Of a stretch of 64,000 nucleotides of DNA, positions 2,945 to 63,221 are shown piece after piece. Under the pieces are notes generated by a model. That model was not told where the DNA came from. It ran no database searches and worked only from the letters and a program-made list of their open reading frames with translations. The stretch comes from Escherichia phage 241. A program made the position numbers and the translations under genes. The DNA is taken from sequence record OR924452. One strand, given 5' to 3'. Position 1 is the stretch's first letter, and each line of letters opens with the position of its first letter.

Positions 2945-2966
2945 CTATCTGTCTGTTGGCTGTATA

Positions 2967-2974: not shown

Positions 2975-3005
2975 CTCTATAAATGGCACTCGATGGAGCA
3001 TCAAA

Positions 3006-6000
3006 ATGCAATCTACAAATCTAAACCGTCGCCCGTATTGGGACGACTGGAATCCTGGAAAACGGTTTTCACGGATTCTTTTTCGCCCGATGCCTATTAA
3101 AGTTCAGACTCGTGAACTAAACCAGATGCAGACTATTCTGCAAGATCAGATTGAAAAGCTGGGAAACCATTTGTTCAAAGATGGATCTATGGTTATCCCT
3201 GGTGGTCTGACGATTACCAACGCCGCTGTATCTATGAAATTCACTCTGGCTGGCGGTACTGAGTTTACTGATCTGGAAGGGATTACTGAACTTTATGTTC
3301 TGGGAAAAGACAATAATGCCAAAGCGCGTGTGCTATCTCTTGAACGTGATCTGTCTGCTCCGGATACGATGTTGGCCATCCTTGAAATGACAGAAGTGGG
3401 TAATGCAGATGGCTTCCACGTCAACGACAATCTGTATTTCCAAACCTATGACGTCAATGACAACTTCATTCGTATTGGTTATGGTATCGCAGCTGCGGTG
3501 ACTGGTTCTATCGTCGCTCGTATGACGAAGGGCGTTTACTTCATTCGTGGGATGTTCCTTGATGTTGATGACGCGACTCTCATCGTCGATAAAACTTCAA
3601 ACACTTCTTCCCATCGCGTCGGGTTTAAAGTCACTGAAACCATCGTGACTGAATCTGAAGACGAATCCCTTTATTCAAACGCTCAGGGAACGATTAACTC
3701 CAAAGCCCCAGGCGCTCATCGTCTTCGAATAGATCTGGTCTTATCTCGATTTGATTATGATGCTGTGGTTGAAGACTTTGTTGAACTGGCCAAAGTTCGT
3801 GATGGTAAAATCCAGTCTATGGTGACTCAGTCCACCTATAATATTCTGGAAGACACGTTGGCTCAACGGACGTATGAAACCAACGGCGATTACAACGTTT
3901 CAACGCATCAGATCGACATCCGCGAACACCTGAAAGTCAATAACAATGGTGGTGTATTCAATGCTGCTGATGGCGGCGACGAAAGTAAATTCGTGTCTGT
4001 AATGAAACCAGGTATTTCCTATGTTCGCGGTCGTCGTATCGAAAACGTCGGGGAAGAGTTGGTGATCGTTGACAAGGCACGGGATACCGATGTCCTGAAT
4101 AACACGCCTGTCGCAGTTGCTACAGGGAATTATCTGGTCACCAAGAACTCCAAAGGTGTTCCAGTAATATCTCGCACTGTGCGATACAAGTTATTGAACG
4201 CATCTGGCGCTGCTCAAGCCACGGCGTTGTGTATATCCGCTGAACGCAATTCAACTGAATTCCGTCTGTACATGCGTGATTTGGTTGTGACTGGGGACGC
4301 GTCCACTATCACCAAAGTGTCTTATGAAGAAAGTGGTATCACCATGTTCTCTGCTGAACTGGAATCCAACCAGTTTAACCAGAGTTCTATGGTAGACTTG
4401 ATCTTCTCTCTTCCGGTCTTCGGTGTTAAAACATTAGCGCCAACAGGTTCCGTGGATATCAACTACACAGTCCTCAGAACTTATAAGGTGACGCTAGACA
4501 GCAGCGGTTCTGGTTCTATTTCAGCTCCGCTGGGATATAGTTTCTCTCCTGAATTTTCGTTGTATTCTTCTGCGAAATCCGATGGTTCAGAAGCGCAATT
4601 TGATATCTCTGGCTCTTTGTCACTGACTGGTTCTCCGGTGGGTTCGGCTTTGCAGATTTCCCTGGGTAGCGGTAATGCTAACCAGTCAATCAATTTGCTG
4701 GCACTGATGATCCGCACTACGGCCACGATCAAAACGAAGACGATAACTGAAACCACAGAGTCTGTGACTTTTACTTCCCAAACCAGTAGACCTCTGGCAA
4801 ATCACGACGGCTGGAAATTGGTATCTGTCAAAAATGATACTGGCGCGGACGTGACTTCGAGCTTCACCCTCGACGGTGGCCAACGCGATGCGGGATATTA
4901 CAAGGCTAATCTGTTATCCACCGCTGGAGCCATTTCAGGGACGTATACGGTGGTGTATCAATACTTCGCGCATAGTTCGGGGGATTTCTTCTCAGCGGAT
5001 TCGTATACTTCAATGGATTACAAAGATATCCCGAATTATACATCCTCCACATCAGGGGCGGTGTATGGTTTGGCCGATAGCCTTGATTTCCGTCCGAAAA
5101 TTACCAACGGGACATCCGACACTGATATGGTTCGCCCGAATACGGCTGTCATCCTGGACACAGAGTATTATTTGCCTCGTATCGACGCGATTTATCTGGC
5201 AGATAATGGCGTGTTTGGTGTAGCCCGTGGCATCAGTTCCAACAACCTGGCGTCCCCAGCAATACCTGCAAACTCCATGCGTTTGTATGAACTGTTGATT
5301 CCCCCATACACGCCGAATATCGATGATATACAAATTCGCACCATCGATAACCGTCGTTATACGATGCGTGATATCGGTAAACTGGAAACGCGTATTTCCA
5401 ACGTTGAATACTACACCTCTCTGTCGCAGCTGGAATCTTCGGCGATGACACAACAGGTATTTGATCCAATCACGGGTAATCCGCGATTCAAAAACGGTAT
5501 CGCCGCCGATCCATTCAAAGACTTCCGTCTTATTGATGATCTGTCTGAAGATTGGATGGGATCTATCGATACGGAAAATGGACGTTTGCGTCCGTTTGTT
5601 CAACAGAACGCCGTTGACATGACTCCAGTAGGCTGGAACAAAGTGATGGATGGTATGGTGGTTTGTAACTACACGCCTGAAATCTCCGTGAACCAAGAAT
5701 ACGCGACGACGACGATCAACGTTAACCCGTATGCTGTATTCAACTGGGAAGGTTTCTTGAAGATTAACCCGACCACGGATTACTGGTTTGAAAACTACTA
5801 TGTCGCCCCGCGTGTTATCAATGAAACGATCAACACTCGTGGTACTGTACAAGAAGGTTCGGTGTACGGGACGTGGCGTACTGTTTCTGTTTCTGATCGT
5901 GTTTGGGAGCCGCATGGCGCTGGTGGTGTGTGGTGGGGATACCGCTATCGCACGACTGTTTCTGCCCGTGATGTCACCACATACACATACACGGACAAAA

Positions 6001-8145: not shown

Positions 8146-8470
8146 AAGATCTGGGCTTGATATCCGTGGTATCTTGACTGCTGTCGTGGCTTCTGCATTG
8201 GTCTCGGCGGCGTCGTTCCTTTGGTTTATGGGTGGGATGGAAACACGCGTGAATGTATTGGAGCGAGATTCTAATAAAATGGATCAGGTCCTTCAAAAGG
8301 TGAATGACATGAGTGAGCGCATGGCGATCATGAATACAGACCTCGCATATGTCAAACAAAATATGGCTGAGTTAAAACTCAATAGCAGCAGCCTATCAGA
8401 CGATGTCCGCACATTGCGGATTACTGTATCTGATTTGCAGCAACGAGGGAATAACAATGGCCGTCAATAA
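8129..8470 (+). CDS. hypothetical membrane protein (single N-terminal TM helix plus coiled-coil)
   Basis: Hydrophobic stretch ILTAVVASALVSAASFLWF near N-terminus; overlaps neighbours by short ATGA-type junctions. Confidence 0.45.
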   Translation: MATQAERSGLDIRGILTAVVASALVSAASFLWFMGGMETRVNVLERDSNKMDQVLQKVNDMSERMAIMNTDLAYVKQNMAELKLNSSSLSDDVRTLRITVSDLQQRGNNNGRQ

Positions 8471-9209
8471 AATTCGCGACAAGAAATCTTTTATGAACTA
8501 TGTCTTGCGTAAATTGGGCGCTCCGGTCATCCAAATTAACCTTGACAGTTCACAAGTAGAAGATGCTGTTGATGATGCTCTACAGAAGTTTTGGGAATAT
8601 CATCGCGACGGTAGCCAAGATGCGTTCTTCCTGTACCAAGTTAAGCAAGAAGATATCGACAAGGGTTATATTGAATTCCCAGAAGATATTGACGATGTGA
8701 TTGAAGTTATCCCTGGACCTCCTATTGAGTCAATTGGAAACTGGGCAACTCCTCAATGGCAAATGGCCCAAGCCATGCTTGTACCAAAAGCGGCGCTTGT
8801 GTCTATTCGTCTCATTGATTACGTTTCCATGCAACAGCGCCTGTCTGATATCACAAGCGTCTTGAATGTTCGTCGTAATTTTGTGTACAAGAAGTTCCAG
8901 CGACGCCTTTACCCGCAATTTGCTGCCACCATTGATGAAACTCTGGCTTTCCGTTGTTATCAGAATATCGACCCCGAATCGGAAGAAAACGCTGAAGCAT
9001 GGAATGACATGTGGTTGAAAGCGTATGCGACTGCATTGGTTAAGCGCCGTTGGGCTGAGGTGCTTAAGAAGGCAAGAGGCATCCGTCTCCCAGGTGGTAT
9101 CGAACTGGATGGTGATAGTATGTTCAGTGAGGCCGAGACCGAGATAGAGCGGTTGGAGGAAGAATTGCGTACTGGTCAGCAATACCCTATCGATTTTATG
9201 ATGGGATAA
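8457..9209 (+). CDS. neck protein, T4 gp13-like
   Basis: N-terminal LRKLGAPVIQINLDSSQVEDAVDDAL resembles T4 gp13 LRRLGAPIINVELTPDQI; first gene of conserved 13-23 block. Confidence 0.75.
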   Translation: MAVNKIRDKKSFMNYVLRKLGAPVIQINLDSSQVEDAVDDALQKFWEYHRDGSQDAFFLYQVKQEDIDKGYIEFPEDIDDVIEVIPGPPIESIGNWATPQWQMAQAMLVPKAALVSIRLIDYVSMQQRLSDITSVLNVRRNFVYKKFQRRLYPQFAATIDETLAFRCYQNIDPESEENAEAWNDMWLKAYATALVKRRWAEVLKKARGIRLPGGIELDGDSMFSEAETEIERLEEELRTGQQYPIDFMMG

Positions 9210-11537: not shown

Positions 11538-13728
11538 TATAGAATATGCTCCGATAAAAACGGGGTTTAAAATCGACGACGTGAAATTGCGTATGGACCA
11601 GACGTTCATGCGCAAGCCTTCTGTGCGCGCTCCACGAGTCGAGTTGATGCTAACAGATGAACAAGAAGACGAATTTGTTGAATGTTCAATGGACGCACAT
11701 TACTTCGCTGCCAATTACTACAAGATAACGACAATCGATAAAGGCTTTATCCTTTTCGATATGCATGATTATCAGAAACAATTATTTCACGATTTTCAAG
11801 ATTATCGTTTCAATGCCGTTGTCCAGGCGCGTCAGTCCGGTAAATGCGTCCGTGGTGATACTCTTGTTTATGTCTATGATACAGTCAGTCAACAAGAGTT
11901 GCATCTCACCATAGAAGAGCTTCACAAGCGCTTCGAAGGACCGAACCATGCTGTGCCACTGAATACCATTGGCAACCACAATAAGTTTGTAGACAGCCGT
12001 TTCGGGAAACGATATTTTGTTGAGTCCGACACTGGCTGGGTTCCGGTTATTGCCGCTCATAAAACGAAAGAATACGCTGAATACGTGGTCAGGACTGAAA
12101 CCGGACGCACAATTCATGTCGCAGATGAGCACATGTTCTTCAATGAATATGGGCGCGAAGTATTTGCTAAAGACATGGAGGCCGGAGATGCCATAATGAC
12201 CCAGGAGGGAATAGAATTCATCTCTGAGATCTGGGAGACTGGTGAGTACCACCACATGTATGACTTGCAAGTCAAGTCCAGCGATCAACGTTATTACACG
12301 AATGGGTTCCTCAGCCATAATACCACGGTCGTGGCTGCGTTTCTTCTTTGGTATGCGATGTTCCACTCAGACAAAGAAATCGCGGTACTGGCAAACAAAG
12401 AGAAACAAGCGATTGAAATTCTTGACCGTATCAGGAAGGCGTATCAGGACCTCCCATTCTTCCTTCAGCAGGGTTGTGAGAAGTTTGGTTCTACACTGAT
12501 AGAGTTTGAGAACGGCTCTAAGATATATGCTTATGCAACGTCTTCGGACTCTATTCGTGGTCGTTCTGTATCTCTCTTGTACGTGGACGAAGTCGCGTTC
12601 ATCGAAAATGACTTTGAATTTTGGGAATCAACATTCCCAGCGATCGCATCTGCTGATACTTCACGTTGTATTCTTACCAGTACTCCGAAAGGCCAGCGAG
12701 GGTTGTTCTATGATATCGTCACCAAAGCAGACCCGCGCCATCCACAATACAACGATTTCCATCTTACCGAAGTCCCTTGGTACAAGGTTCCGGCGTACAC
12801 CAAAGACCCTGATTGGGAAACCAAACAACGCGCTCGTCTGGGGGATGCCCGTTTTGACCAGGAATTTGGAATCAAGTTCCGTGGTTCTGTAGGTTCATTG
12901 ATACCAGCCAAATGCTTGGATAAAATGACATCCAAGTTATATCGAGAGCCTAATGAGTTCACCAAAATTTACAAGGAATATGACCCGCAACGCATCTACT
13001 TCGGGATTGCAGATACGGGGAAAGGTGTTGAAGGAGATTATTCGGTTCTGACAATTCTGGATATAACGGAATACCCGCATGTCATAGCGGCCAAGTACAG
13101 GAACAATACAATACCTCCGATGATGTATGCATACACGATAGCTGATATGTGTACTGAATACGGGGAGTGTCCAGTCCTTGTAGAAACCAACAACGACGTT
13201 GGTGGACAGGTTATTACAATCTTGTATCAAGAAATTGAGTATCCAGAGATTATATTCACGTCGACGGATAACAAAGGGACAGGGAAACGGATTGGTGGTC
13301 GTAAACCAGAGCCAGGCATTAACACCAACAGGAAAGTGCGATCTATTGGTTGTGCTAACCTGAAAGCGCTTATTGAGAAAGAAATGTTGGTGATCGAAGA
13401 CCAAGACACGATAGATGAACTCAGCACATTCGTGTTCCGTGGTGCGCGTTATGAAGCAGATGATGGATGTCACGACGACTGCGTTATGCCGTTGGTATTA
13501 TATTCTTGGGCAGTTAAACAAGAATGGTTCAGTGATCTGACTTCTACCAGTATTTCTCAAGACATGAGAAATAGAATGTCTTCGACTGAGTCACAACAAG
13601 TATTCCCATTTGGTGGTTTAGTCGTGGGAGACACTCCATCTGGAACTGAGCATCTCCCTGGGTTCGGTGGTGTTCAAGTCTTCGACGAACGTTCAGGGAT
13701 GACAATGGACGAGTGGTTTAAGAATTGA
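11518..13728 (+). CDS. terminase large subunit, T4 gp17-like, interrupted by a mini-intein
   Basis: RFNAVVQARQSGK...TTVVAAFLLWYAMF matches T4 gp17 [24 protein letters not shown] once residues 110-268 are removed. Confidence 0.9.
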   Translation: MAYQKRDIEYAPIKTGFKIDDVKLRMDQTFMRKPSVRAPRVELMLTDEQEDEFVECSMDAHYFAANYYKITTIDKGFILFDMHDYQKQLFHDFQDYRFNAVVQARQSGKCVRGDTLVYVYDTVSQQELHLTIEELHKRFEGPNHAVPLNTIGNHNKFVDSRFGKRYFVESDTGWVPVIAAHKTKEYAEYVVRTETGRTIHVADEHMFFNEYGREVFAKDMEAGDAIMTQEGIEFISEIWETGEYHHMYDLQVKSSDQRYYTNGFLSHNTTVVAAFLLWYAMFHSDKEIAVLANKEKQAIEILDRIRKAYQDLPFFLQQGCEKFGSTLIEFENGSKIYAYATSSDSIRGRSVSLLYVDEVAFIENDFEFWESTFPAIASADTSRCILTSTPKGQRGLFYDIVTKADPRHPQYNDFHLTEVPWYKVPAYTKDPDWETKQRARLGDARFDQEFGIKFRGSVGSLIPAKCLDKMTSKLYREPNEFTKIYKEYDPQRIYFGIADTGKGVEGDYSVLTILDITEYPHVIAAKYRNNTIPPMMYAYTIADMCTEYGECPVLVETNNDVGGQVITILYQEIEYPEIIFTSTDNKGTGKRIGGRKPEPGINTNRKVRSIGCANLKALIEKEMLVIEDQDTIDELSTFVFRGARYEADDGCHDDCVMPLVLYSWAVKQEWFSDLTSTSISQDMRNRMSSTESQQVFPFGGLVVGDTPSGTEHLPGFGGVQVFDERSGMTMDEWFKN
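11845..12321 (+). mobile_element. mini-intein (159 aa) inserted in terminase Walker A motif between Lys and Thr of GKT
   Basis: Insert begins with Cys (CVRGDTLV), ends with His-Asn (FLSHN) and is followed by Thr; flanking exteins rejoin to a canonical P-loop; too short for an endonuclease domain. Confidence 0.8.
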
Positions 13729-16822: not shown

Positions 16823-18505
16823 ATGGCTGGATACGGCAGAGGGTTCTTCGGTTTGTTTGGCGGCGGCGGTTTGGTGAACGCTAAAGTCGACACCGATAAG
16901 TTAGCCCAAAAACAAGATGAACGGTTGCTAACCAAAGCGACAGTTGTTGCTCTGGACGACGCTCAAGACGGTTCTATAATCCTTCAGGGTGGTGCGAACA
17001 CCTACAACTATGTTGGCGTTGAAAGTGAACTTCTCAGCGTTAAAACAGTTGTGGAAGAATATCAGTCCATGGCTCAACAGCCTGAAATTCGCAAAGCGGT
17101 GGACATTATTGTCAATGATGTTGTCACCTGTGAGGAAGATGAAACTCCAGTGACAGTAAACCTTGACAAAGTTGAAGGGATATCTGATACTGTTAAAGAA
17201 TCTATCACTGAATGCTTCAAAGAAGTTATGCACTTGATGGACTTTGACAATACGGCATATCAGAAGATCCGGAAATGGTATGTTGACGGTCGACAAGCAT
17301 ATCATGTCATCGTTGATCCCACGAATAAAAAAGGCGGGATCAAGAAATTGGTTATGCTTGATTCTCGTTGCATTCGTCCTGTCTATATCGTTGAGAAGGC
17401 GATGCGTGAAGGTGGTATCGAAGCAATAGAATCTGTAACGCTGAAATATTATTACAACCCGAATTACAACCGGAACCAATTCACTGGTCAGTCAGGGACT
17501 TCTCAAAACTTCCAGCCTTCACAACAAGAACTCGTATTCGATGACGAAAGCATTGTTTACATCGATAGTGGTGAAGAGCCATTGGCCAATGGTATTGTCC
17601 CAGGCCTTTTAAATCCTGCTATCCGTCCGTTGAACAACCTGGTTACGACTGAAGATGCGACTGTAATTTATGCCATCACTCGCGCCCCTGAGAAACGCGC
17701 ATTCTATCTTGACGTCGGTACTCTCGGTAAGAAATCTGCTGAAGAATACATGACCATGATGATGGGTAAATTCAAAAACCGCAACGCATATGACCGCACC
17801 ACTGGTAAGATAACAGGTAATGCCCATCTTATGGGTATTGCAGAGGATTATTGGTTGCCGCGCCGCGAAGGTCAGAATGCTACAGAGATCGCGACTGTTG
17901 GTGGTGGGAATCAATTGGGCGAAATGGATCACGTGAACTATTTCCGTGAAAAACTCTATGATGCTCTAATGATCCCTAAGAGCCGCCTCCAAGAGGAAGG
18001 ATCTATTAACATTGGGGGTTCTAACCTTGCGGAGATTACACAGGAAGAGCTGCGTTTCAGCAAGTTCTGTGCTGGGTTACGTCGTCGTTACTCCCATTTC
18101 TTTATGGAGTTTTTACGTCGCCAATTAATTTTGAAAGGCGTGACTGACGAAAAAGATTGGAATGAAAAAATCAAGCCGTTTATTAAGTTTGAATTCACTT
18201 CTGATAGCTATATTCGTGAGCAACAAGAAAACGCCATATTAAATGATCGCCTGGCTTCTCTGAACACTGTTGAGCCTTTTGTTGGTTCTATATTCTCCAT
18301 CGATTATGTCATGCGGAATGTTCTGCGTATGTCAGACGAAGAAGTTAAAGAACAACAGGCTAAGATCGCGGAAGAGAAGAAGAAAGGTCTCTATCCGAAG
18401 GTTCAAGCAGATGAAACTGGCAATTATAGTGGTTCAGATGTTAGTCCGTTGAAGTTTAAACCTGAGACTATCCCATTCTCCGGTTCAACAGACGATAGTA
18501 TTTAA
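16823..18505 (+). CDS. portal vertex protein, T4 gp20-like
   Basis: WYVDGRQAYHVIVDP and VIYAITRAPEKRAFYLDVG...EDYWLPRREGQNATE match T4 gp20 blocks. Confidence 0.9.
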   Translation: MAGYGRGFFGLFGGGGLVNAKVDTDKLAQKQDERLLTKATVVALDDAQDGSIILQGGANTYNYVGVESELLSVKTVVEEYQSMAQQPEIRKAVDIIVNDVVTCEEDETPVTVNLDKVEGISDTVKESITECFKEVMHLMDFDNTAYQKIRKWYVDGRQAYHVIVDPTNKKGGIKKLVMLDSRCIRPVYIVEKAMREGGIEAIESVTLKYYYNPNYNRNQFTGQSGTSQNFQPSQQELVFDDESIVYIDSGEEPLANGIVPGLLNPAIRPLNNLVTTEDATVIYAITRAPEKRAFYLDVGTLGKKSAEEYMTMMMGKFKNRNAYDRTTGKITGNAHLMGIAEDYWLPRREGQNATEIATVGGGNQLGEMDHVNYFREKLYDALMIPKSRLQEEGSINIGGSNLAEITQEELRFSKFCAGLRRRYSHFFMEFLRRQLILKGVTDEKDWNEKIKPFIKFEFTSDSYIREQQENAILNDRLASLNTVEPFVGSIFSIDYVMRNVLRMSDEEVKEQQAKIAEEKKKGLYPKVQADETGNYSGSDVSPLKFKPETIPFSGSTDDSI

Positions 18506-19050: not shown

Positions 19051-19719
19051 ATGATGAAACTGTTGCGTGAGATCACAGCGATAGGGAAGGATCTTCAAAT
19101 CGGTGAGGCCACAACCTCAACTGGTGGGAAGGCCATGTTCATCGAAGGTCCGTTTGTGATGTGTAACCAAGTCAACCGTAACGGGCGTAACTATGATCTA
19201 CAGAAAGTGGGTATTCCTGCTGTCGAAGCATACGACAAAGAGTATATCCAAGATCGTCGCGCAATCGGTGAAGTCACACATCCTGACTATCCTTTCCCTA
19301 ATTTAGTGGAAGCTGCGCTCAAAACCGAATCCCTTCGCTGGGAAGGCACTAATGCCATCGGTCGGGCGAGAATTTTAAACACACCAAAAGGCCAAATCAT
19401 TCGTGCATTGGCCGAAGCAGACTTCAATCTGGCCGTATCTACTCGTGGCCTGGGTGAGACTAAGTCGGTAAGCGGTTATGATGATGTTCAGCCTGGCTTT
19501 ATGCTTACCGCCGTTGACGCAGTTGACCGTCCTTCTGGACAAGTTTGTTATGTTAAGGCTGTGAGTGAATCTGTTGAATGGCAGCTGGACGAGGCTTCGG
19601 GTATTTGGATGCCTCGTGATGTTAAAGGGAAAGTTGTAGACCAGTTGGTGAAAGCCAATATCCAGGTTGAAGACGATTTCCTGCGCCGCCTTGATGCAGC
19701 ATTGAATCATCTGGGCTGA
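19051..19719 (+). CDS. prohead core protease, T4 gp21-like
   Basis: IGEVTHP, IGRARILN and VSTRGLGE match T4 gp21 GELNHP, YGRARVIEG, VSSRGLGS. Confidence 0.85.
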   Translation: MMKLLREITAIGKDLQIGEATTSTGGKAMFIEGPFVMCNQVNRNGRNYDLQKVGIPAVEAYDKEYIQDRRAIGEVTHPDYPFPNLVEAALKTESLRWEGTNAIGRARILNTPKGQIIRALAEADFNLAVSTRGLGETKSVSGYDDVQPGFMLTAVDAVDRPSGQVCYVKAVSESVEWQLDEASGIWMPRDVKGKVVDQLVKANIQVEDDFLRRLDAALNHLG

Positions 19720-19765: not shown

Positions 19766-20605
19766 ATGAAACCTGAATTGCAAAATCTGTTTGAAGGCGT
19801 TAACGGCATCAGCCCAGATTTCCTGGATAAAGTATCCAATTTGCTGGAATCGAAAGTTGAAGCGGCTCGTCTGAAAGCTATCCAAGAAACCGAAGCAGCT
19901 GGCAACGTCGAGCGCCTGAATCTGGTAGAATCTCACCAGAAAGAAATCGCCGACCTGAAAGAAAATTTCATTCTGCAATTGGCTGGGAAAGTTGACTCAT
20001 TCCTCAACGCGGTGGTTGAAGAATGGGCTAACAAAAATGCCCCAGCTATTGACGCTCAGATCAAAACTGAAGCTGCTGAACGCTTCCTCACTGGTTTCTC
20101 CAACGTGCTGAAAGAAGCAGGTGTGAGTTTCGCTACTGACCCAGACGGTCAGATTGCCGCCCTCACCAGTCGCCTTGCTGAAGCAGAACAACGCGCCAAC
20201 ATGGCTAATACAGAGTTGAGCCAACTCAAAGAAAGCGAGACTAAACGCCAGCGCACCGACGTAATTGATCGCATTTGTGAAGGTATGGTTGACACCAAGA
20301 AAGACACTGTTGTCAACCTGCTGGAAGGTATTGAATTCCAGACCGAGTCTGAATTCGAATCGCGTGTTCGCACCTTCCGTAATCTGGTAGAAGGTAAAGA
20401 TGACTTCTCTGACAAAGTCGGTAAAGACAATGAAAAGGGTAAGCCAGATGGCGACAAGGCTGAAAAAGACATCAAAGAAGGTAAGAAACAGAAAAAAGAA
20501 GGTGATGTTGTTGACGACGATAAAGACGACGACGACAGAGACGAAGTTGGCAAAGAAGTCAACGAAGCCGTCCGTCGCCAGATCAGCGCCATTCTGAACG
20601 GCTAA
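19766..20605 (+). CDS. prohead scaffolding protein, T4 gp22-like
   Basis: Acidic, alanine/glutamate-rich, coiled-coil-like protein with poly-Asp tail; between protease and major capsid genes. Confidence 0.7.
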   Translation: MKPELQNLFEGVNGISPDFLDKVSNLLESKVEAARLKAIQETEAAGNVERLNLVESHQKEIADLKENFILQLAGKVDSFLNAVVEEWANKNAPAIDAQIKTEAAERFLTGFSNVLKEAGVSFATDPDGQIAALTSRLAEAEQRANMANTELSQLKESETKRQRTDVIDRICEGMVDTKKDTVVNLLEGIEFQTESEFESRVRTFRNLVEGKDDFSDKVGKDNEKGKPDGDKAEKDIKEGKKQKKEGDVVDDDKDDDDRDEVGKEVNEAVRRQISAILNG

Positions 20606-20696: not shown

Positions 20697-22019
20697 ATGA
20701 CTAAGAAACTTGTAACCGAAGAAATGCGCAAACAGTGGCTGCCAGTTCTCCAAAAAGAATCTGAAGCCATCCAACCTCTGTCTGCCGAAAACGTAACCAT
20801 CCGTCTGATGCAAAACCAGGCCGAGTGGAACGCTAAAAACCTGGGCGAATCCGACGCTCCTGGTTCTGTAAACAGCACTGTCGGTAAATGGCAGCCAGTC
20901 CTGATCGACATGGCAAAACGTCTGGCGCCGATCAACATCGCAATGGACTTCTTCGGCGTTCAGCCGCTGTCTGGTCCTGATGGTCAGATCTTCGCACTGC
21001 GTGCTCGCCAAGGCGTTGGTGACGGTTCTACTACCGCTCAGGCGCGTAAAGAACTGTTCATGAACGAAGCCGATTCCGGCTACTCTGGTGATGGCACTGT
21101 ACAGGCTGGTGACCCGTCAGGCTTCAGTCAGGCTGAGATCGAAGGTTCCGGCTCTGTCGTGACCACTATCGGTAAAGGTATGCCGTCAACCGACGCGGAA
21201 CTGCTGGGTACTACCACCAATCCGTGGGCGCGTGTTGGTATCACCGTTCAGAAAGCGACCGTTACTGCCAAGTCTCGCGGCCTGTATGCTGATTACAGCC
21301 ATGAACTGCGTCAGGATATGATGGCAATTCACGGCGAAGACGTGGACAATATCCTGTCTGACGTGATGGTAACTGAAATTCAGGCGGAAATGAACCGTGA
21401 ATTCATCCGCACCATGAACTTCAGTGCTGTTCGTTTCAAAAAATTCGGCACCAACGGTGTTGTTGATATCGCGCAGGACATCTCCGGTCGTTGGGCGCTG
21501 GAAAAATGGAAATTCCTGACTTTCATGCTGGAAGTCGAAGCGAATGGTATCGGCGTTGACACCCGTCGTGGTAAAGGCAACCGTGTTCTGTGTTCTCCGA
21601 ACGTGGCGTCTGCTCTGGCGATGTCCGGCATGCTGGACTATGCTCCGGTTCTGCAGGAAAACACCAAACTGGCTGTTGACCCGACTGGTCAGACCTTCGC
21701 GGGTGTTCTGTCCAACGGTATGCGCGTCTATGTTGACCCGTATGCTGTAGCAGAATATATCACCCTGGCGTACAAAGGCGCGACTGCGCTGGATGCTGGT
21801 ATCTTCTTCGCACCGTATGTGCCGCTGGAAATGTACCGCACCCAGGGTGAAACCACCTTCGCTCCGCGTATGGCGTTCAAAACCCGTTACGGCATCTGTG
21901 CTAACCCGTTCGTTCAGATTCCGGCTAACCAAGACCCGCAGGTTTACGTGACTGCTGACGGTATTGCTCAAGACAGCAACCCATACTTCCGTAAAGGTCT
22001 CATCAAATCTCTGTTCTAA
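20697..22019 (+). CDS. major capsid protein, T4 gp23-like
   Basis: INIAMDFFGVQPLSGPDGQIFALRARQG matches T4 gp23 NLIAFDICGVQPMNSPTGQVFALRAVYG; C-terminal AFKTRYGICANPF matches GFKTRYGIGINPF. Confidence 0.9.
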   Translation: MTKKLVTEEMRKQWLPVLQKESEAIQPLSAENVTIRLMQNQAEWNAKNLGESDAPGSVNSTVGKWQPVLIDMAKRLAPINIAMDFFGVQPLSGPDGQIFALRARQGVGDGSTTAQARKELFMNEADSGYSGDGTVQAGDPSGFSQAEIEGSGSVVTTIGKGMPSTDAELLGTTTNPWARVGITVQKATVTAKSRGLYADYSHELRQDMMAIHGEDVDNILSDVMVTEIQAEMNREFIRTMNFSAVRFKKFGTNGVVDIAQDISGRWALEKWKFLTFMLEVEANGIGVDTRRGKGNRVLCSPNVASALAMSGMLDYAPVLQENTKLAVDPTGQTFAGVLSNGMRVYVDPYAVAEYITLAYKGATALDAGIFFAPYVPLEMYRTQGETTFAPRMAFKTRYGICANPFVQIPANQDPQVYVTADGIAQDSNPYFRKGLIKSLF

Positions 22020-52130: not shown

Positions 52131-52901
52131 ATGGGTATGAATTTTGTAGACAGGGGTGATAACGTCACCAAATATTTCACTGACGAAGATAATGATCGAG
52201 TTGTGGGGATATTGCGTGATTGGATCCCTGCTCGTAAAAAGGCATTAGCCGAAGGAACACCCCTACCAAGAATCCCCAATTACGTGGCCATGAATGTTCA
52301 GATGATAATCAAGAATATGAGTATGCGCTACAACTACCGTGATTATCCATATCGTGAAGACATGGTGAGTGAAGCGGTTGTGAACATCCTTCGTTACCTT
52401 CACACCTTTGACGTTAGCCATATCGGCAAGAAAGGAAAGATCAACTTCTTCTCTTGGGTGACTATGTGTGCCGATCGATCATTCGCCAAGAAACTCACGA
52501 GTGAAGAAGAACACAACTACATTAAATTGCGTTCCTTTGAAGAAGCAGGTGGGTTCGCAGCTTTATCGGATGACCCAGACTTCCAACAACAAACCTTCGT
52601 TGATAGCACTGGGATAACGATGGACTTTCGTGAACGCATCGGTAATTTCGAAAATAAGAAAGAAGCCCAGCGTGAAAAGGAACGCCAAAAGCAAACGGCT
52701 ATCAAAGAAGAGGAAAAGAATAAGAAAATCCCTCGCGGTATACTTCAATGTCTTACGAAGAGTGAAAATACCATTACCGCTGACGCCGAAGATAATTCAG
52801 ATAATGACTTCGGCTCTACTCAATTTAGTCTTGAAGATATAATGGACAGCCCCACATTGTTAGCCGAATCAGTTGGAGAAAAGAATAATGGCGATTGCTA
52901 A
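52131..52901 (+). CDS. late-transcription sigma factor, T4 gp55-like
   Basis: ILRDW, NILRYLHTFD and NFFSWVTMCADRSFAKKL parallel T4 gp55 IIDWKTEL, IKGLHNFD, AYITQACFNAFVQRIKKE; upstream of genes 47/46 as in T4. Confidence 0.6.
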   Translation: MGMNFVDRGDNVTKYFTDEDNDRVVGILRDWIPARKKALAEGTPLPRIPNYVAMNVQMIIKNMSMRYNYRDYPYREDMVSEAVVNILRYLHTFDVSHIGKKGKINFFSWVTMCADRSFAKKLTSEEEHNYIKLRSFEEAGGFAALSDDPDFQQQTFVDSTGITMDFRERIGNFENKKEAQREKERQKQTAIKEEEKNKKIPRGILQCLTKSENTITADAEDNSDNDFGSTQFSLEDIMDSPTLLAESVGEKNNGDC

Positions 52902-57337: not shown

Positions 57338-57955
57338 ATGACGATGACAACGTTGAAGGCCATGGCCTTGTCCGTGACCTTTACCATTGCCAGCGGGAGT
57401 GTGCACGCTTCCCAAAGTACCACCCAATGTGATTACGAATTTTCTGATCAGCAACTTTCAACTATGGCCACTGCCTATCACATAGGCAAACAGCAAGACC
57501 TTGGTTTCACCCTAGCCGCGATATCATGGAGGGAAAGCCGCGCCGGAGAAGATGTGGTATCCATGCGGAATAACCTGAAATCGGCTAATATGGGGGCATT
57601 CCAAAATCGAGTCCAAACCGTTGGGAAACGGGAGGGATGCAAAACACAGAAGTGTTACGCCAACGTGGCGATTAAATTGCTGGTCAATCAAGAGTACGCA
57701 GCCAATGCAGCCCTTGATGAAATGAATTTCTGGCTTGGGTATCATAACCAAAACATCCGCAAATCGCTCTCCTCTTACAATGCCGGTTTCAGTCGTAACC
57801 AAAAATCCAATTCATACGCTGCTGATGTCGTGAAGAAGGCTAAATATCTTCAACGATGTGTGTCTTTCAAAGGCATGGCAATAAACCCGAAGGTCGACCC
57901 AGGAGTGATCGCCATGAATAAGCGCACGATTGAGAAACTCAAGAGGACCCGATAA
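57338..57955 (+). CDS. lytic transglycosylase (SLT domain) with N-terminal signal sequence; endolysin candidate
   Basis: Signal-like MTMTTLKAMALSVTFTIASGSVHA; SLT motifs WRESRAG (catalytic Glu-Ser), SANMGAFQ, SSYNAGF. Confidence 0.65.
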   Translation: MTMTTLKAMALSVTFTIASGSVHASQSTTQCDYEFSDQQLSTMATAYHIGKQQDLGFTLAAISWRESRAGEDVVSMRNNLKSANMGAFQNRVQTVGKREGCKTQKCYANVAIKLLVNQEYAANAALDEMNFWLGYHNQNIRKSLSSYNAGFSRNQKSNSYAADVVKKAKYLQRCVSFKGMAINPKVDPGVIAMNKRTIEKLKRTR

Positions 57956-58593
57956 TGAATATCACTCCATCTCAGACCGGATACGAGCACTTAATGGTGT
58001 TTATTGCGATTCAGGGGGCAAAAGAAGGCATCATCAGTTCTGAATATTCTGGAACGATGCGCCTGGCTGATTATGTTGCTCCCGAAGCGTTTATCAAGAA
58101 ATGTGTCGACGCATGGTGCCTTTATGCTATCGGCACGTATCCTACTCCTCCGGCAGGTGAGCTACTGTTTACCGTTCCGACCCCAGCCGCTGGCGACACA
58201 GACGCGATCTTTGCTGATATGTTGGCCAAAGGTTATCTGGCATATGATAGTGCTCACAATGTCTATGACTTCTCGGCGTTGAATCGTATCTTCGGATACA
58301 CCATAACATCCGAAGCCAATATTCCCGACTATGGAATTCTGGCATGGGGTATTGACGGTCTCGGCGCAACATATGCGTCTTCTGATGTTGGTCCTGTATT
58401 GATTGACACAGGTGTGACAATGGAGCAATACATGTCACAATTCCCTCAGCATAATGTTACCGGAAGCGACATCATTATTGTCTATCCTGGTTCTAATGCG
58501 TTGTCCCGCCTGGTGGACGGCTGGAAGCCTCAGCTGAAGGACATCGTTGCTGGAATCAGATTTCACATCCCTGTCGTCAATCCCACACCTTAA
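57955..58593 (+). CDS. hypothetical protein (212 aa)
   Basis: ATG overlaps previous stop. Confidence 0.5.
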   Translation: MNITPSQTGYEHLMVFIAIQGAKEGIISSEYSGTMRLADYVAPEAFIKKCVDAWCLYAIGTYPTPPAGELLFTVPTPAAGDTDAIFADMLAKGYLAYDSAHNVYDFSALNRIFGYTITSEANIPDYGILAWGIDGLGATYASSDVGPVLIDTGVTMEQYMSQFPQHNVTGSDIIIVYPGSNALSRLVDGWKPQLKDIVAGIRFHIPVVNPTP

Positions 58594-58649: not shown

Positions 58650-58697
58650 TCTAAACATAAGCAGTACGACACCAACTTGAAAAGCAGGAACTATATC

Positions 58698-59066
58698 ATG
58701 ACCAAAACTGAATTGAACAACATTCTGAACGTTGCTGGGTACAAGAATATTCTTCGTGGGAACAACAAAATCGCGCGTGACCGTAGCAACAAAATCATCA
58801 AGGGGTTTCCCCTGTGTAAAACTGGTCCGCTCGATATCAGCAACCCGTCCAAGCGCTTGTTTAAAGACTTATTGCGTGAACTCGGCACTAAAGGCCTGGT
58901 GCTAGATAAAAAGGATGACCTGGTTGACTTTGGCATCGCGGTTATGAAGATTGCCAAATTCAAAATAACTCTGTGCGTACAGACAATTCAGACATATGAC
59001 TACTCTGAAGGCCGTGACCCGAATTACGAAACAAAATATGTCAACGTAAGGATTGAAGGGTTATAA
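58698..59066 (+). CDS. hypothetical protein (122 aa)
   Basis: CAGGAACTATATC-ATG context; ORF track start 58677 is further upstream. Confidence 0.45.
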   Translation: MTKTELNNILNVAGYKNILRGNNKIARDRSNKIIKGFPLCKTGPLDISNPSKRLFKDLLRELGTKGLVLDKKDDLVDFGIAVMKIAKFKITLCVQTIQTYDYSEGRDPNYETKYVNVRIEGL

Positions 59067-59147
59067 TACGAATATGCGGGGGCTTGATGCCCCTTTCTTT
59101 TCGCTAATTAAGGAAAACCGCACCGATTTATTATCAGGAGAATTACA

Positions 59148-61532
59148 ATGGCCATCCAATCTTTCTTAAATTTCCTTGACGAGTCCAAACAATTGGACGA
59201 AGCGTTTAACTCCGCTCCATACGAATTGACTTTCGGCAAGAAAAATGCTGGTGACATTTTCTTCACGTTCGTAGACGAAGATGAAAAAGAATTCCGCATC
59301 CAATTTTATACCCCGCAGGGGCTGGGCAAGAACGTTCGTCAGGTCTTCATAGGCCAGAAACGTGGTTCAACCTATCCAGACGCAATCGGTCGTTTCAAAA
59401 ACCCAATGCGTGTCATCGCATCCATGATCGAAGCGACTAAACAATTCATGGCGACACCGCTGGGTAAAACCATTGATGGGTTTGCGATTAACTTCTCCAA
59501 GAAAGCTCTAGAACGCGGAACGACGTTACTCCCAAAAATTATTCGTCAATCTGGTCTGAAGCAGAAACTCAACGTCATGGATCTGACTTATACCCCAATC
59601 CCTGACCGTGCCTTCGTATGGGTTGTACGCAAAGGCAAGGATCCTGCTCAGGTATTCGATGGTCCGAAAATGAAAGGCGTGACTTGGGACGACCCAGACA
59701 AAGTCGGTGACGTTCCTGACCAGGCTGCTCGTGACGCCGCACTACAAGGTGACATGGATGATTTGAGCCAATCCATAAATGCCGATTCTCGCTGGATTCT
59801 GACCAAAGCTGATCATACTCAGCCTATGCTGGTCTGGTCTGGTAAAGAACGTGGGCGGACTATTACCGCCAATATCGCACCTCACGCGAATGAACCTGGT
59901 GTGTATGCTGGTAGTATCATGAACGAGAAACGGATCCGCGCTCAATCCCCAGACGCTATTGTACGCCAACTGGGATTACCGCAGATCCCTGTGAATATTC
60001 TGAATGATTTCACCAAGCAGTCGTCCATCTTCTGGAAAGAGATGACGGGGGATTCTGGAAAAATAGACATGCAGACTTTGCCAAAAACAGGATCTGTGGA
60101 TGACTTACGAAATCAGGGTTATATTGCTCGCCTTCTGGGGATTGTAGACACATATGCTCCACAACAGGTCGGTATGTATGCAGGTGAGAAACTAACACGA
60201 ATCGGCGCGGGCAAATATCGTACTTCGGGTGGTCTGGACATTCAGGTTTATTTCTGGGGAATTGTCAACGGAAAACTTTCTGTAGAAGTGGTTTCTGATT
60301 TATCTGGCAATGAACAGCTGATGCTGGAAGGCGACGTGAAAAACGCTGCTTTTGAAATCGTCAGTGCGATATCCCGTGCTGCTGATTCTCAGTTCAAAGG
60401 TGAAGTGGAATGTCGTGTTGTTCCAATCAACGGTGCCCCATACCCGATTCAAAAGGTTTCCCGTTCCCAGGGTTATTCTTATGTCGATTGTATTTCGTTT
60501 ACCTTGAAGATCGCCGATGCATTGTTAAATCGTTTTACTCTGGGTAAGGCAGTCAAACTCGATCTGATAAAAGAGTTCCCTCGAACGACGTTTATTGTTC
60601 GTTATGACTGGCGCAGCAAAGATACTCTGATGGTCCAGTCTTCTGATGGGAAGACTATCTTCGGCGAAATCAACACAAATTCCAGTGATAACGCTGTCAT
60701 CACTGCGAACCTGAAAGCCCCAAGCAATGCGAAGATATTTGGTGAAACCGTTCATGGGTTCTCTGTGGCTTGGGACTTCCAGTTCCCTGCGGGTAGCCAG
60801 CTGCAAGCCGCACGGTTCGTTACGAACGTGACTTACGACTTCGATCGTAATAAGGCCAACATCACGACCATGCTGACCGAAAATGGCCGAAATGTAGTCA
60901 ACAGCAGCGGATATGACATTCAGTTATCTGTCAAGTCTGTGCAAGATGCGTTGAATGAGACTTCACAACGCCTGAAAGACGCTGCGGCTCAATTGAGCCA
61001 TCTCAGTTCATCAAACTATAACCCGAACAAGCTGTTTCTGAATGATATCACCGTCAGTAAGTTTGGTGCAATTATGTTCCAAGACAAAGATCTGGCGCAG
61101 TCTAGAAACCGCACTGCAGTCATTGATGCCCTGGCTCGCGCCAAAGACCAAGCTGCTGGGGGCAAGAACAGCAGCGATCTGGCCACATATTCCGATTCCA
61201 TCCGCAACAGTGCTCCCAACGGACGAGATCTTGATTGGCAGGTATACGTGACCAATAGCGGCGCAGTTCTTAACGTCGATTGGAGTATCACCTTCCGTCG
61301 CAACACAACCGAAGGTGCATATCGTGAGTTCAAAGATCAGATCAACCGTGCTAACCAGTATTTACAAACGGTATACAACGATGCGAAATCGAAGGGATAT
61401 AACCCGACAGAGCCAAACCTGATGACTCTGGCTCGTGCCCAGCAGTCCGACGAATGGGCGGCAAGTAACGGGGAAAGCGCATACAGTGAGTATGAGCAGT
61501 CTCTGGGCGGCAATCTTCAGATTAAGATCTGA
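59148..61532 (+). CDS. large hypothetical protein (794 aa); candidate virion-packaged internal protein
   Basis: AGGAG RBS; amphipathic acidic N-terminus MAIQSFLNFLDESKQLDE; shares SPDAIVRQLGLPQIPVNILNDF module with downstream gene. Confidence 0.5.
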   Translation: MAIQSFLNFLDESKQLDEAFNSAPYELTFGKKNAGDIFFTFVDEDEKEFRIQFYTPQGLGKNVRQVFIGQKRGSTYPDAIGRFKNPMRVIASMIEATKQFMATPLGKTIDGFAINFSKKALERGTTLLPKIIRQSGLKQKLNVMDLTYTPIPDRAFVWVVRKGKDPAQVFDGPKMKGVTWDDPDKVGDVPDQAARDAALQGDMDDLSQSINADSRWILTKADHTQPMLVWSGKERGRTITANIAPHANEPGVYAGSIMNEKRIRAQSPDAIVRQLGLPQIPVNILNDFTKQSSIFWKEMTGDSGKIDMQTLPKTGSVDDLRNQGYIARLLGIVDTYAPQQVGMYAGEKLTRIGAGKYRTSGGLDIQVYFWGIVNGKLSVEVVSDLSGNEQLMLEGDVKNAAFEIVSAISRAADSQFKGEVECRVVPINGAPYPIQKVSRSQGYSYVDCISFTLKIADALLNRFTLGKAVKLDLIKEFPRTTFIVRYDWRSKDTLMVQSSDGKTIFGEINTNSSDNAVITANLKAPSNAKIFGETVHGFSVAWDFQFPAGSQLQAARFVTNVTYDFDRNKANITTMLTENGRNVVNSSGYDIQLSVKSVQDALNETSQRLKDAAAQLSHLSSSNYNPNKLFLNDITVSKFGAIMFQDKDLAQSRNRTAVIDALARAKDQAAGGKNSSDLATYSDSIRNSAPNGRDLDWQVYVTNSGAVLNVDWSITFRRNTTEGAYREFKDQINRANQYLQTVYNDAKSKGYNPTEPNLMTLARAQQSDEWAASNGESAYSEYEQSLGGNLQIKI

Positions 61533-61540
61533 TCATCAAG

Positions 61541-61552
61541 CCCCTTCGGGGG
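61541..61552 (+). terminator. short hairpin
   Basis: CCCC-TTCG-GGGG immediately before the late-promoter-like motif. Confidence 0.35.
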
Positions 61553-61560
61553 CTAAATAC
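61553..61560 (+). promoter_or_regulatory. late-promoter-like motif CTAAATAC
   Basis: About 20 nt upstream of ATG 61582. Confidence 0.45.
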
Positions 61561-61581
61561 ATCAAAATCCTTAGGAGATCC

Positions 61582-62130
61582 ATGATGAAACCGTTTATCG
61601 AATATTTTAAAGAACAAGCCCAGCAGCCGCAAACTCATGGCGGTATACAAGGCAAAAGTGTAACCATCACTAAACAAGCCGATGGAACACAATGGTGCTC
61701 CGGCGCTACCGTGACCCAGATCACTCCTGACAATCAGGCCGATGTCTATAATCTGGAATTGACTAATGGCAACACCATCAAAGTGAAGCTAACTCCAGAC
61801 CAGACCCACGGCATTACCCAAGGCCAAGAAGTTGTTGCCGTCCATGATGGTTTTGAATTTTTCTTCGGCAAGTCAGCTGACAAAGGTCAGGTTACTGAAG
61901 CGGAAGGCTGGCGTTTCGTCGGTGACCGTGGCGCTCATATTCTGATGTATGACGCAAAAGTTGGCGGTGCCTCCACTATCCTTCGCAGTCCAACAGATCG
62001 AACCAAATTTGTTGGTGGTCTCATCAACGGTAGAAAAATTTTGGGTAATTCCCCAGAAGAACTGGCGGCAAAATTAGGTCTTCCAAAAATTCCTGATAAT
62101 TTATTAAAATCGTTTTTTGGTAAAAAGTGA
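61582..62130 (+). CDS. hypothetical protein (182 aa) paralogous over a C-terminal module to the 794-aa protein
   Basis: ATG 61582 with AGGAGA RBS preferred over non-ATG start 61435; C-terminal SPEELAAKLGLPKIPDNLLKSFF. Confidence 0.5.
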   Translation: MMKPFIEYFKEQAQQPQTHGGIQGKSVTITKQADGTQWCSGATVTQITPDNQADVYNLELTNGNTIKVKLTPDQTHGITQGQEVVAVHDGFEFFFGKSADKGQVTEAEGWRFVGDRGAHILMYDAKVGGASTILRSPTDRTKFVGGLINGRKILGNSPEELAAKLGLPKIPDNLLKSFFGKK

Positions 62131-62148
62131 TTATAAAATACAATCCCC

Positions 62149-62156
62149 CTAAATAC
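62149..62156 (+). promoter_or_regulatory. late-promoter-like motif CTAAATAC inside hairpin
   Basis: CCCCCT-AAATACA-GGGGG hairpin with motif in the loop, 30 nt upstream of ATG 62187. Confidence 0.4.
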
Positions 62157-62186
62157 AGGGGGATTTTCTTTTTAGGGGTAAATATC

Positions 62187-62540
62187 ATGGTCAATGCGAG
62201 TATATTCATCAACCGTGGACTGCTTGCTATAGCCCACTCCCATGCCCTCCACTTCGTTACAACGTCCTATGCCAAGCACAAGGCACTCGGGGAGTTCTAC
62301 GGGGAACTGGAGGACTTGCTGGATACCTTCACAGAGGCATATATCGGCGCGGGTGGTGTATATGTCCCAGGGTTTGAGAATATTAAACTGTACAACCCAG
62401 ATCCTATATCGTATGTCAACAGTGTTGTTATCGACGTAAACGGAATTTATGGTCAATGCGACAGCCATCTTCAAAATACGCTTGATGAAATCAAAACTTT
62501 GTGCTATCAAACGATTTACAAACTGAAGCAATTGTCCTAA
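62187..62540 (+). CDS. hypothetical protein (118 aa)
   Basis: ATG 62187 downstream of motif. Confidence 0.45.
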   Translation: MVNASIFINRGLLAIAHSHALHFVTTSYAKHKALGEFYGELEDLLDTFTEAYIGAGGVYVPGFENIKLYNPDPISYVNSVVIDVNGIYGQCDSHLQNTLDEIKTLCYQTIYKLKQLS

Positions 62541-62603: not shown

Positions 62604-63221
62604 ATGGGCAAAATCTTTATACCTTCTCACTCAGAAGGTTGTCAAATCGCTGCAAAATTTCTACACAAACAAATGAATTGTGGTGCTGTGTTCGTAGAAC
62701 CAAATTCATTCGATAATCGTGAATCCCCTGACGCCATCGGGTTCAGACCTGGGGGTTGTTCTATATTAATGGAAGTTAAAGTCTCCCGCGCCGACTTCCT
62801 GACAGACAAAAAGAAACCTCATCGCATGAATCCTTCCATAGGCATGGGAGCATATCGTTTCTATGTTTGCCCAGCAGATGTTATTAAAATTGAAGACCTC
62901 CCTCCCAAATGGGGTTTGTTGTACTTCACCCCTAGAAAATCTTTGAAGCCCGTTCACGTTCCGAATATGCAATATTCCTCTTTGTCTTCACCGGAACATT
63001 ATGCATCATATTTGTCTAAATCTTTGGGCAAAAGAAGTCCTACAGATATCCCTCCTTATCTATTAGGGTACAAACAGATGCTGGAAGAATTTGCCCACTT
63101 TGATCGCAATCAGGTTGCGGAACAAAATATTCTGTATGGGGCTTGGCGACAGCTTTGCATAGCTCAAAGTCGCGGGGTGGATTATAATGTGACAGAAGTA
63201 TTCCAAAGGCCAAATATCTGA
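62604..63221 (+). CDS. hypothetical protein (205 aa), possible PD-(D/E)xK nuclease fold
   Basis: PDAIGF...ILMEVKVS resembles a D...ExK core; weak. Confidence 0.4.
   Translation: MGKIFIPSHSEGCQIAAKFLHKQMNCGAVFVEPNSFDNRESPDAIGFRPGGCSILMEVKVSRADFLTDKKKPHRMNPSIGMGAYRFYVCPADVIKIEDLPPKWGLLYFTPRKSLKPVHVPNMQYSSLSSPEHYASYLSKSLGKRSPTDIPPYLLGYKQMLEEFAHFDRNQVAEQNILYGAWRQLCIAQSRGVDYNVTEVFQRPNI

Follow-up and report, generated by a model that had tools for sequence, protein, structure and literature searches.

What do two adjacent genes of Escherichia phage 241, encoding proteins of 794 and 182 amino acids (aa), contribute to the virus, and what does the segment shared by their products represent? Both genes lie on the stretch of 64,000 nucleotides (nt) analysed here, to which we refer as the window (sequence record OR924452; one strand, 5' to 3'). 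A first-pass annotation, made from the letters alone, had delimited them exactly (59148-61532 and 61582-62130) and raised the idea of packaged internal head proteins or injected effectors. The region 59000-62200 is 93-96% identical at the nucleotide level to Kutterviruses (Ackermannviridae) such as Salmonella phage Se_EM1, Escherichia phage Sa157lw, PhaxI and CBA120, the 794-aa gene standing at 96%, and judged by this identity the source of the window is a Kuttervirus. In CBA120 the counterparts are orf111 (795 aa, annotated as a 'possible fusion protein') and orf109 (181 aa), both flanked by the recombination nuclease genes gp46/gp47 on one side and by the primase gene on the other. We propose that the two products are, rather probably, internal head (ejection) proteins that would be targeted by a leader, processed by the prohead protease and endowed with shuffled payload domains.

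The first-pass annotation had recognised that the two proteins are homologous, which is correct; it had, however, described a motif of 25-34 residues, and this understates the relationship, which extends over a whole domain of about 75 residues. Residues 253-288 of the 794-aa protein align without gaps to residues 143-178 of the 182-aa protein, at 39% identity and 67% positives (BLASTP, E=7e-8), and a profile made from this segment in 50 different large-protein homologues matches the C-termini of four full-length homologues of the small one over 72 columns (hhalign, probability 96.6%, E=4.8e-10). In AlphaFold2 (AF2) models, both copies are predicted to form five strands followed by two helices, the conserved SP[DE]..L...LGLP.IP...L..F pattern corresponding to the helix-turn-helix-like C-terminal half; the model of the 182-aa protein, with a predicted local distance difference test score (pLDDT) of 46, was too poor for a fold search. 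Because the homology spans 72 columns and the same five-strand, two-helix pattern is present in both proteins, the shared unit is a complete small domain.

This extent bears on a reading of the segment as a linear docking motif for the clamp of replication and late transcription, which would reflect the neighbourhood of replication genes. The extreme C-terminus of the 182-aa protein, ...DNLLKSFF, is indeed PIP-box-like and fits D-x-x-L-x-x-F-F, and the flanking genes encode gp46/47, primase and ribonucleotide reductase. However, the homology is that of a 72-column folded domain and not of a peptide, the motif is internal in the 794-aa protein, where it reads VNILNDFT, and both proteins are virion components with late promoters. 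On account of the folded-domain similarity and of the presence in virions, we rejected clamp binding, which we regard as highly improbable.

The shared domain has a narrow distribution. When a profile built from ten copies was searched against 1.84 billion representative proteins (HMMER), the domain was confined to homologues of the large protein (P0146, P0147, P0148, P0156, P0157, P0158) and one homologue of the small protein (P0121); further matches in large repeat proteins (P0149-P0155, P0159) were discarded as compositional, being due to Thr/Ser/Gly/Val-rich beta repeats. A tblastn search of 50,697 phage genomes found it only in Ackermannviridae. Two of the large homologues (P0146, P0147) contain two diverged copies each. 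Since close relatives exist without it, the domain is dispensable.

Around this domain, both families are organised as modules. The large-protein family comprises 268 members at E<=0.001, and lengths in the family range from 464 to 1138 aa. Its most conserved part is the almost invariant N-terminal 'carrier' domain, which also exists as a stand-alone protein (P0145, 182 aa) and which two paralogues of Vibrio phage K369 (737 and 1138 aa) combine with quite different downstream regions. The carrier domain is followed by a hypervariable slot, which the first-pass annotation had missed and for which we counted 69 distinct sequences among 120 homologues; it is either empty or filled with one or two cassettes. 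These fall into seven or more unrelated types, the shared domain being one such type and the cassette of Vi01 another. Downstream of the slot, the beta-rich body is moderately conserved and the C-terminal ~100 residues, which end in AYSEYEQSLGG, are conserved; structure searches gave no convincing structural neighbour for residues 310-794, and the 794-aa protein has no Pfam match. A 31-residue tblastn match in 'Salmonella phage selz' was considered as a case of transfer to another type of phage and rejected, as it corresponds to the conserved C-terminus of the large family; a selz locus tag is likewise found on an 819-aa homologue listed among the database proteins.

In the small family, the leader and residues 12-106 are retained throughout, and in the 182-aa form the C-terminal ~76 residues are the shared domain. 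In a 189-aa form (e.g., Sajous1 gp215), an unrelated C-terminus of 84 aa takes its place; as a candidate for a diverged shared domain it was dismissed, there being no detectable homology (hhalign E=0.07). The end of a 104-aa homologue (P0144), ...TE, coincides exactly with the junction. Where the 189-aa form is present, it is followed by an extra 79-aa gene (gp216 in Sajous1), which has a leader of its own, and the mature part of gp216 is found fused within the slot of the carrier P0157 (E=4.4e-15). The mini-domains thus belong to a single pool and appear in three settings, always behind a leader: within the carrier, fused to the 95-residue domain of the small protein, and free-standing.

With regard to the function of the shared domain, both copies are basic, with isoelectric points (pI) of 9.7 in the 794-aa protein and 10.1 in the 182-aa protein. 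As the modelled domain also has a helix-turn-helix-like end, binding to nucleic acids and binding to host proteins are both plausible. It has to be considered whether the proteins, while internal to the head, might use this domain (SPxxLxxxLGLPxIP) to organise DNA, condensing or protecting the packaged genome instead of acting on the host. The basic character and the modelled core would suit such a role, as would the description of T4 internal proteins as highly basic (PMC8442874) and the Dps/ferritin-like nature of a neighbouring virion protein. Nevertheless, packaging can do without the domain, which some close relatives lack in one or both proteins (Vi01-type slot, 189-aa variants), and no helix-turn-helix family was matched in Pfam or structure searches. 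A purely DNA-organising role, which is a sub-variant of the internal head protein model, appears to us quite unlikely.

The leaders recall T4. The first-pass annotation had likened both N-termini to the T4 capsid-targeting sequence, and the likeness holds in register at the functional positions. In the T4 internal proteins this sequence is MKTYQEFIAE (PMC8442874), residues 4 and 7 serving in targeting and residues 8 and 10 in processing (PMC9026906). Read from its second Met, encoded by the ATG at 61585 that is the start codon used in relatives, the leader of the 182-aa protein has F4, Y7, F8 and E10 at the positions of T4 Y4, F7, I8 and E10. That of the 794-aa protein shows F6, F9, L10 and E12, i.e., the T4 spacing shifted by two residues, and a second site, LDE18. 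Among 61 homologues of the latter, F6, F9, E12, L16, E18 and A19-F20-N21 are invariant or nearly so and the intervening residues vary; in the 182-aa family, the M, K, F and E of the leader are invariant in 25 homologues. The pattern is also kept by diverged carriers, such as those beginning with MKSTFSGFIAE/A...LVTE/AFN, MTPSFSGFLTE/Q...LVTE/AFN or MSKFLGFLAE/S...LNE/AFN (slashes mark candidate cleavage sites), and it recurs as F4, F7, L8 and E10 in Sajous1 gp216 (MKGFPDFLKE) and CBA120 orf223 (MKTFGEFLTE). The last of these is a 65-aa gene in the tRNA region (136922-137119) whose leader is identical to the T4 sequence at 6 of the 10 positions and which has a CTAAATA motif 40 nt upstream; its sequence makes orf223 a candidate for a third internal head protein in Kutterviruses.

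A strict regular expression for the leader selected, from 2149 candidate starts in the window, only the 794-aa and 182-aa genes together with one antisense open reading frame, and, from the 4160 candidate starts of the whole CBA120 genome, only orf111, orf109 and orf223. These three compare with a chance expectation that we estimate at ~0.03-0.2 among ~210 real genes. Candidate cleavage sites fall at E11 in the 182-aa protein and at E12 and E18 in the 794-aa protein, whose mature N-terminus would be S13 or A19 (AFNSAPYELTFGK); full-text searches of the literature yielded no N-terminal sequence. The window encodes a T4 gp21-type prohead protease, whose homologue is annotated as Peptidase U9 in PhiSH19, and we propose it as the enzyme that removes the leaders. 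Where the two domains of the small protein meet, an invariant VTE/A resembles LVTE/AFN, which is the second site in the leader of some carriers, and we therefore speculate that this junction might be a protease site that frees the cassette.

A further resemblance to T4, likewise missed by the first-pass annotation, concerns the carrier domain. When the AF2 model of the 794-aa protein was compared with BFVD using Foldseek, its own family came first, followed by Alt of Aeromonas phage phiAS5 (E=7.5e-5, 210 columns) and Alt of Shigella phage SP18 (E=1.2e-3). The matches also include a 272-aa protein of Aeromonas phage 50AhydR13PP (E=3.9e-4), which represents the Alt N-terminal region, since it is too short for the ADP-ribosyltransferase (ART) domain and aligns with T4 Alt residues 2-200 (tblastn), as well as multi-domain phage proteins with Zeta-toxin, deaminase or ParB domains. 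At the sequence level, profiles of 15 carrier N-domains and 11 diverse Alt N-termini were aligned by hhalign over 152 collinear columns (carrier 15-169, Alt 3-170) with P=0.0028; three of 300 column-shuffled controls equalled the real score. In this alignment, QLDE18/AFN of the carrier is set on L-[IN]-[TE]-E/[LV]-F-D of the Alt family (ITE6/LFD in T4 Alt). T4 Alt is cleaved at ITE-6 and LTE-619, and ~40 copies are packaged and ejected (PMC5694885); its ART domain occupies residues 374-614, and its first 200 residues have no Pfam family. We regard the carrier N-domain as a candidate for distant homology with the N-terminal, non-catalytic domain of T4 Alt; the link is moderate, likely but not proven. 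In the T4 annotation, alt.-1 and alt.-2 (13065-13450) are described as having arisen long ago by duplication of the beginning of alt. The Alt N-terminal region has thus been duplicated independently of the ART domain, which is consistent with a separable module.

The first-pass annotation had suggested looking for an ART or other effector domain, and in this respect the profile search yielded nothing recognisable. For the ART catalytic domain (PF03496, R-S-E motif), there was no Pfam match at E<=0.1 with the whole 794-aa protein or at E<=10 with its N-domain, T4 Alt scoring 5.8e-36 in the same scan.

As for the location in the particle, the presence of both proteins in purified virions, expected by the first-pass annotation, agrees with published mass spectrometry of close homologues, from which our virion data are taken rather than from this isolate. 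In caesium chloride-purified Sajous1 virions, gp214 was represented by 196 spectra, which places it among the top five, gp215 by 32, gp216 by 20 and gp217 by 10 (PMC10892097). Here gp214 is the homologue of the 794-aa protein, gp215 is homologous to the N-terminal part of the 182-aa protein, and gp217 is the homologue of the DUF5856 protein encoded next to them. In LIMEstone1 virions, 'unknown structural proteins' cluster within ORF78-85 (ORF78, 80, 81, 82 and 85; PMC3296691); on the basis of synteny and predicted mass, we match them with the DUF5856 protein (ORF78, 13.15 kDa), the small protein, the carrier in two halves and the DUF7270 protein (ORF85).

Virion presence is also compatible with external parts, in which case the proteins would serve in tail completion, as fibres or in decoration, the cassettes would be surface binding domains through which the particle adapts to its hosts or surroundings, and the N-terminal helix would have a part in assembly instead of signalling capsid targeting. 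Some database records label the 794-aa homologue as 'tail completion protein' or 'tail fiber protein', and the authors of the Sajous1 study, who named gp214 a 'tail completion protein', proposed that gp214-217 form an iron-based 'ferrojan horse' tail entry operon (PMC10892097). Moreover, the large protein is abundant in virions, and phage surfaces often display hypervariable arrays built of small beta-rich domains. Yet homology lends this reading no support, none to the tail completion gp3/gp15 families having been found for the 794-aa protein, and it leaves both the leaders and the Alt-N similarity unexplained; we consider it unlikely, although less so than the two alternatives discussed above. 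In the same study, TonB and FeoB mutants were infected normally by Sajous1, and the Phyre2 confidence for a TOBE domain in the small protein was 63% over 23% of the protein (PMC10892097). In our Pfam scan, TOBE (PF03459) remained below threshold in the small protein (residues 42-87; 17.4 bits versus a cutoff of 22.3, E=0.0053).

The expression signals are in keeping with virion proteins made late. The first-pass annotation had associated both genes with late promoters. This applies fully to the 182-aa gene, which has an exact CTAAATA 29 nt upstream of its start (61553-61559), a credible late promoter; the 794-aa gene has only a one-mismatch variant, GCTAATTAAGG. The window has 11 copies of CTAAATA, all of them on the + strand; six precede a start codon by 29-49 nt, namely those of the genes for the tail sheath, the gp22 scaffold, a 213-aa protein listed in the Sajous1 virion peptide table, a small protein of the head cluster, the 182-aa protein and the DUF5856 protein. 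In CBA120, ~17 of 25 copies are found 24-44 nt upstream of starts on the same strand, mostly of structural genes, and one precedes orf223. The GCTAATTAAGG variant is conserved before the carrier genes of CBA120, bering, Sajous1 and Dickeya phage phiD3 (Kuttervirus and Limestonevirus), and the two orthologous carrier genes of Vibrio phage K369 have an exact CTAAATA at the same position; the variant is a putative promoter. At the equivalent position before its small gene, phiD3 has the T4 consensus TATAAATA. Hairpins overlap or enclose the motifs that follow the 794-aa and 182-aa genes (Table 1), and one compact hairpin/CTAAATA element may end one late transcript and start the next. In the CBA120 paper the late promoter of the family was not identified, and the AG3 paper gives only a loose late-promoter consensus, ending in ATNAATA.

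Building on the domain homology, the modular shuffling, the conserved leaders, the protease gene and the virion presence of homologues in the literature, we envisage the following course of events. Both genes would be expressed late, and the N-terminal leader would target the two proteins to the prohead core, as in T4, the Alt-N-like domain perhaps also helping to target the large one. The gp21-type prohead protease would then trim the leaders after a hydrophobic-x-Glu site, and the trimmed proteins would remain in the head once it is filled with DNA and would probably be ejected into the cell along with the genome. The 794-aa protein would act as a carrier, made up of the leader, the invariant Alt-N-like domain, the hypervariable slot of interchangeable small domains and the conserved C-terminal body. 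By analogy with the T-even internal proteins and Alt, the two proteins would lie inside the head, be cleaved at E11, E12 and E18 and be ejected, and they may serve to take over the host early or to counter its defences. A slot that is hypervariable and recombining would also fit the evolutionary logic of T4-style head passengers.

Several points weigh against this proposal. The leader motif is short: over all 4160 candidate starts of CBA120 about 4 chance matches are expected, and the enrichment is seen only among real genes. Furthermore, the position two before the cleaved Glu, which is L or I in T4, is F in the leader of the 182-aa protein. The link to Alt is weak in sequence, with an hhalign probability of only 10.8% in addition to the shuffled controls that did as well; HMMER searches against PHROGs give no link between the carrier and Alt families, and the N-domain is modelled at low confidence (pLDDT 40-66, against a mean of 72 for the whole 794-aa model). 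No effector or inhibitor domain was recognised in Pfam or structure searches, so that a host-directed function is argued purely by analogy. Finally, arrays like those in the slot are typical of surface-exposed phage proteins as well.

Comparison with known systems helps to place the proposal. With IPI, IPII and IPIII of the T-even phages, the window proteins share the register of the leader (aromatic at 4 and 7, hydrophobic at 8, Glu at 10), the presence of genes for a gp21-type protease and a gp22 scaffold, late expression, and small, partly basic payloads that are highly variable between close relatives and have only the leader in common. The mature parts, however, have no sequence homology to the T-even proteins; the Kuttervirus payloads are not only free-standing but also fused into a large carrier and placed behind a second conserved domain; and processing and ejection are putative here, with no known anti-restriction activity. 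In the case of T4 Alt, the common features are a large protein with a short cleavable N-terminal propeptide (a candidate one in the 794-aa protein), followed directly by a domain of ~170 residues, and the appearance of a non-essential virion passenger. Unlike Alt, the 794-aa protein has no ART domain (PF03496), the cassette slot and an unrelated C-terminal body standing in its place, its propeptide would have 18 residues instead of 6, and the sequence similarity is only marginally significant.

The polyvalent proteins of phages and conjugative elements (PMC5512222) and the MuF-type polymorphic proteins delivered from heads offer a third comparison. As in these, several unrelated domains are combined in one polypeptide, the architectures vary among relatives, and packaging into the virion and delivery are predicted. 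On the other hand, the cassettes of the window are restricted to one lineage, none of the catalogued polyvalent conflict domains (zincin-like metallopeptidase, ART, ParB, InPase and others) was found in the window proteins, and targeting apparently relies on a T4-type leader and an Alt-N-like domain, not on MuF or portal fusions. The Vibrio relatives come closer, with an HExxH motif and an adjoining gene for InPase, a domain that Iyer et al. 2017 (PMC5512222) describe from polyvalent proteins packaged into heads. The 737-aa paralogue of K369 (2391-4604) has the zinc-protease-like motif HEMGH near its C-terminus, and a neighbouring gene (8460-9068) encodes a 202-aa InPase protein (PF18823, E=5e-34) with a leader-like MPSFKCIAE/A. 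From their sequences, these genes suggest that enzymes delivered from the head form a larger family in marine Ackermannviridae-like phages.

A broader and more tentative model, which we hold to be possible but less likely than not, sees in these genes a general head-loading platform of the Ackermannviridae. An Alt-N-type carrier domain and a T4-type leader would load lineage-specific mini-domains, reshuffled among large carrier, small carrier and free-standing genes, and the protease may free some of them at VTE/A-type junctions. Together they would form a co-injected polymorphic arsenal against host defences directed at hypermodified phage DNA, comparable to the arms race of the T-even internal proteins.

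The remaining features of the window are listed in Table 1. The DUF5856 gene, encoding a ferritin/Dps-like protein, belongs to the same late-expressed virion-protein cluster as the 794-aa and 182-aa genes. Its homologues are elsewhere annotated as 'starvation-inducible transcriptional regulator', the protein has no capsid-targeting-like leader, and a Dps-like protein packaged along with the DNA would be unusual. The DUF7270 protein (212 aa) is acidic, with a pI of 4.5, and a CTAAATA lies 115 nt upstream of its gene, within the preceding one. Directly upstream of the 794-aa gene there is another variable slot, occupied here by a 129-aa protein (PHROG 13016), in CBA120 by an unrelated 91-aa protein (orf112) and in phiD3 by two different small proteins (111 and 75 aa). 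A 205-aa protein (PHROG 631), whose gene immediately precedes that of the primase, has weak matches to a 'DNA repair protein' PHROG, and by eye its stretch DAIGFRPGGCSILMEVKVSRADF resembles a PD-(D/E)xK nuclease motif.

Table 1. Coordinates of the features discussed, in positions of the window (slashes, candidate cleavage sites).
Feature	Position	Strand	Remarks
Portal	16871-18502		head module
T4 gp21-type prohead protease	19054-19716	+	tblastn with CBA120 orf190: 99% identity, 221 aa
gp22-type scaffold	19766-20602		head module
Major capsid protein	20697-22016		head module
gp55 late sigma factor	52131-52898		
DUF7270 protein	57955-58593		
Variable slot upstream of the 794-aa gene	58677-59066		
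Terminator-like hairpin	59078-59094	+	GGGGGCTTGATGCCCCT then T-run; ends the gene upstream of the 794-aa gene
One-mismatch CTAAATA variant	59103-59113	+	GCTAATTAAGG; ~40 nt upstream of the 794-aa start
794-aa virion protein gene	59148-61532	+	homologue of CBA120 orf111, Sajous1 gp214 and Vi01 'phage associated protein'; PHROG 3867
Leader of the 794-aa protein	59148-59201	+	residues 1-18, MAIQSFLNFLDE/SKQLDE/AFN(S); two [L]-x-E candidate cleavage sites
N-terminal carrier domain	59202-59717	+	residues 19-190
Shared cassette domain, copy 1	59787-60014	+	794-aa residues ~214-289, inside the hypervariable slot (residues ~191-310)
Central and C-terminal region of the 794-aa protein	60075-61529	+	residues 310-794, beta-rich domains, AF2 pLDDT 80-90
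Hairpin	61541-61559	+	GCCCCTTCGGGGGC; 3' stem overlaps the CTAAATA of the 182-aa gene
182-aa virion protein gene	61582-62130	+	homologue of CBA120 orf109; PHROG 4048
Leader of the 182-aa protein	61582-61614	+	M-MKPFIEYFKE/Q, capsid-targeting-like
Conserved beta-rich N-domain of the small protein	61615-61899	+	residues 12-106, ends in invariant VTE/A
Shared cassette domain, copy 2	61903-62118	+	182-aa residues ~108-179
Hairpin with CTAAATA (62149-62155) in the loop	62142-62165	+	CCCCCTAAATACAGGGGG; terminates the 182-aa gene; probable late promoter for the gene that follows
DUF5856 ferritin/Dps-like protein, 117 aa	62187-62540	+	Pfam PF19174, E=1.3e-28
205-aa protein	62604-63221		
Leader peptides expected if the N-termini were unprocessed			MAIQSFLNFLDESK (794-aa protein), MKPFIEYFK (182-aa protein)

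The Ackermannviridae (Kuttervirus and relatives) are common phages in biocontrol and therapy, and about half of their genes, including those of several abundant virion proteins, are without an assigned role; a 2024 review of the family makes no mention of internal proteins, anti-defence or late promoters. If the model proposed here is true, it would explain the cluster of 'unknown structural proteins' and would extend the T4 capsid-targeting/Alt paradigm to a second phage family, with the N-terminal domain of Alt as a possible reusable carrier. The hypervariable cassettes would then be prime candidates for counter-defence factors that limit host range, and there would be a natural protein-delivery handle for the engineering of Ackermannviridae phages.

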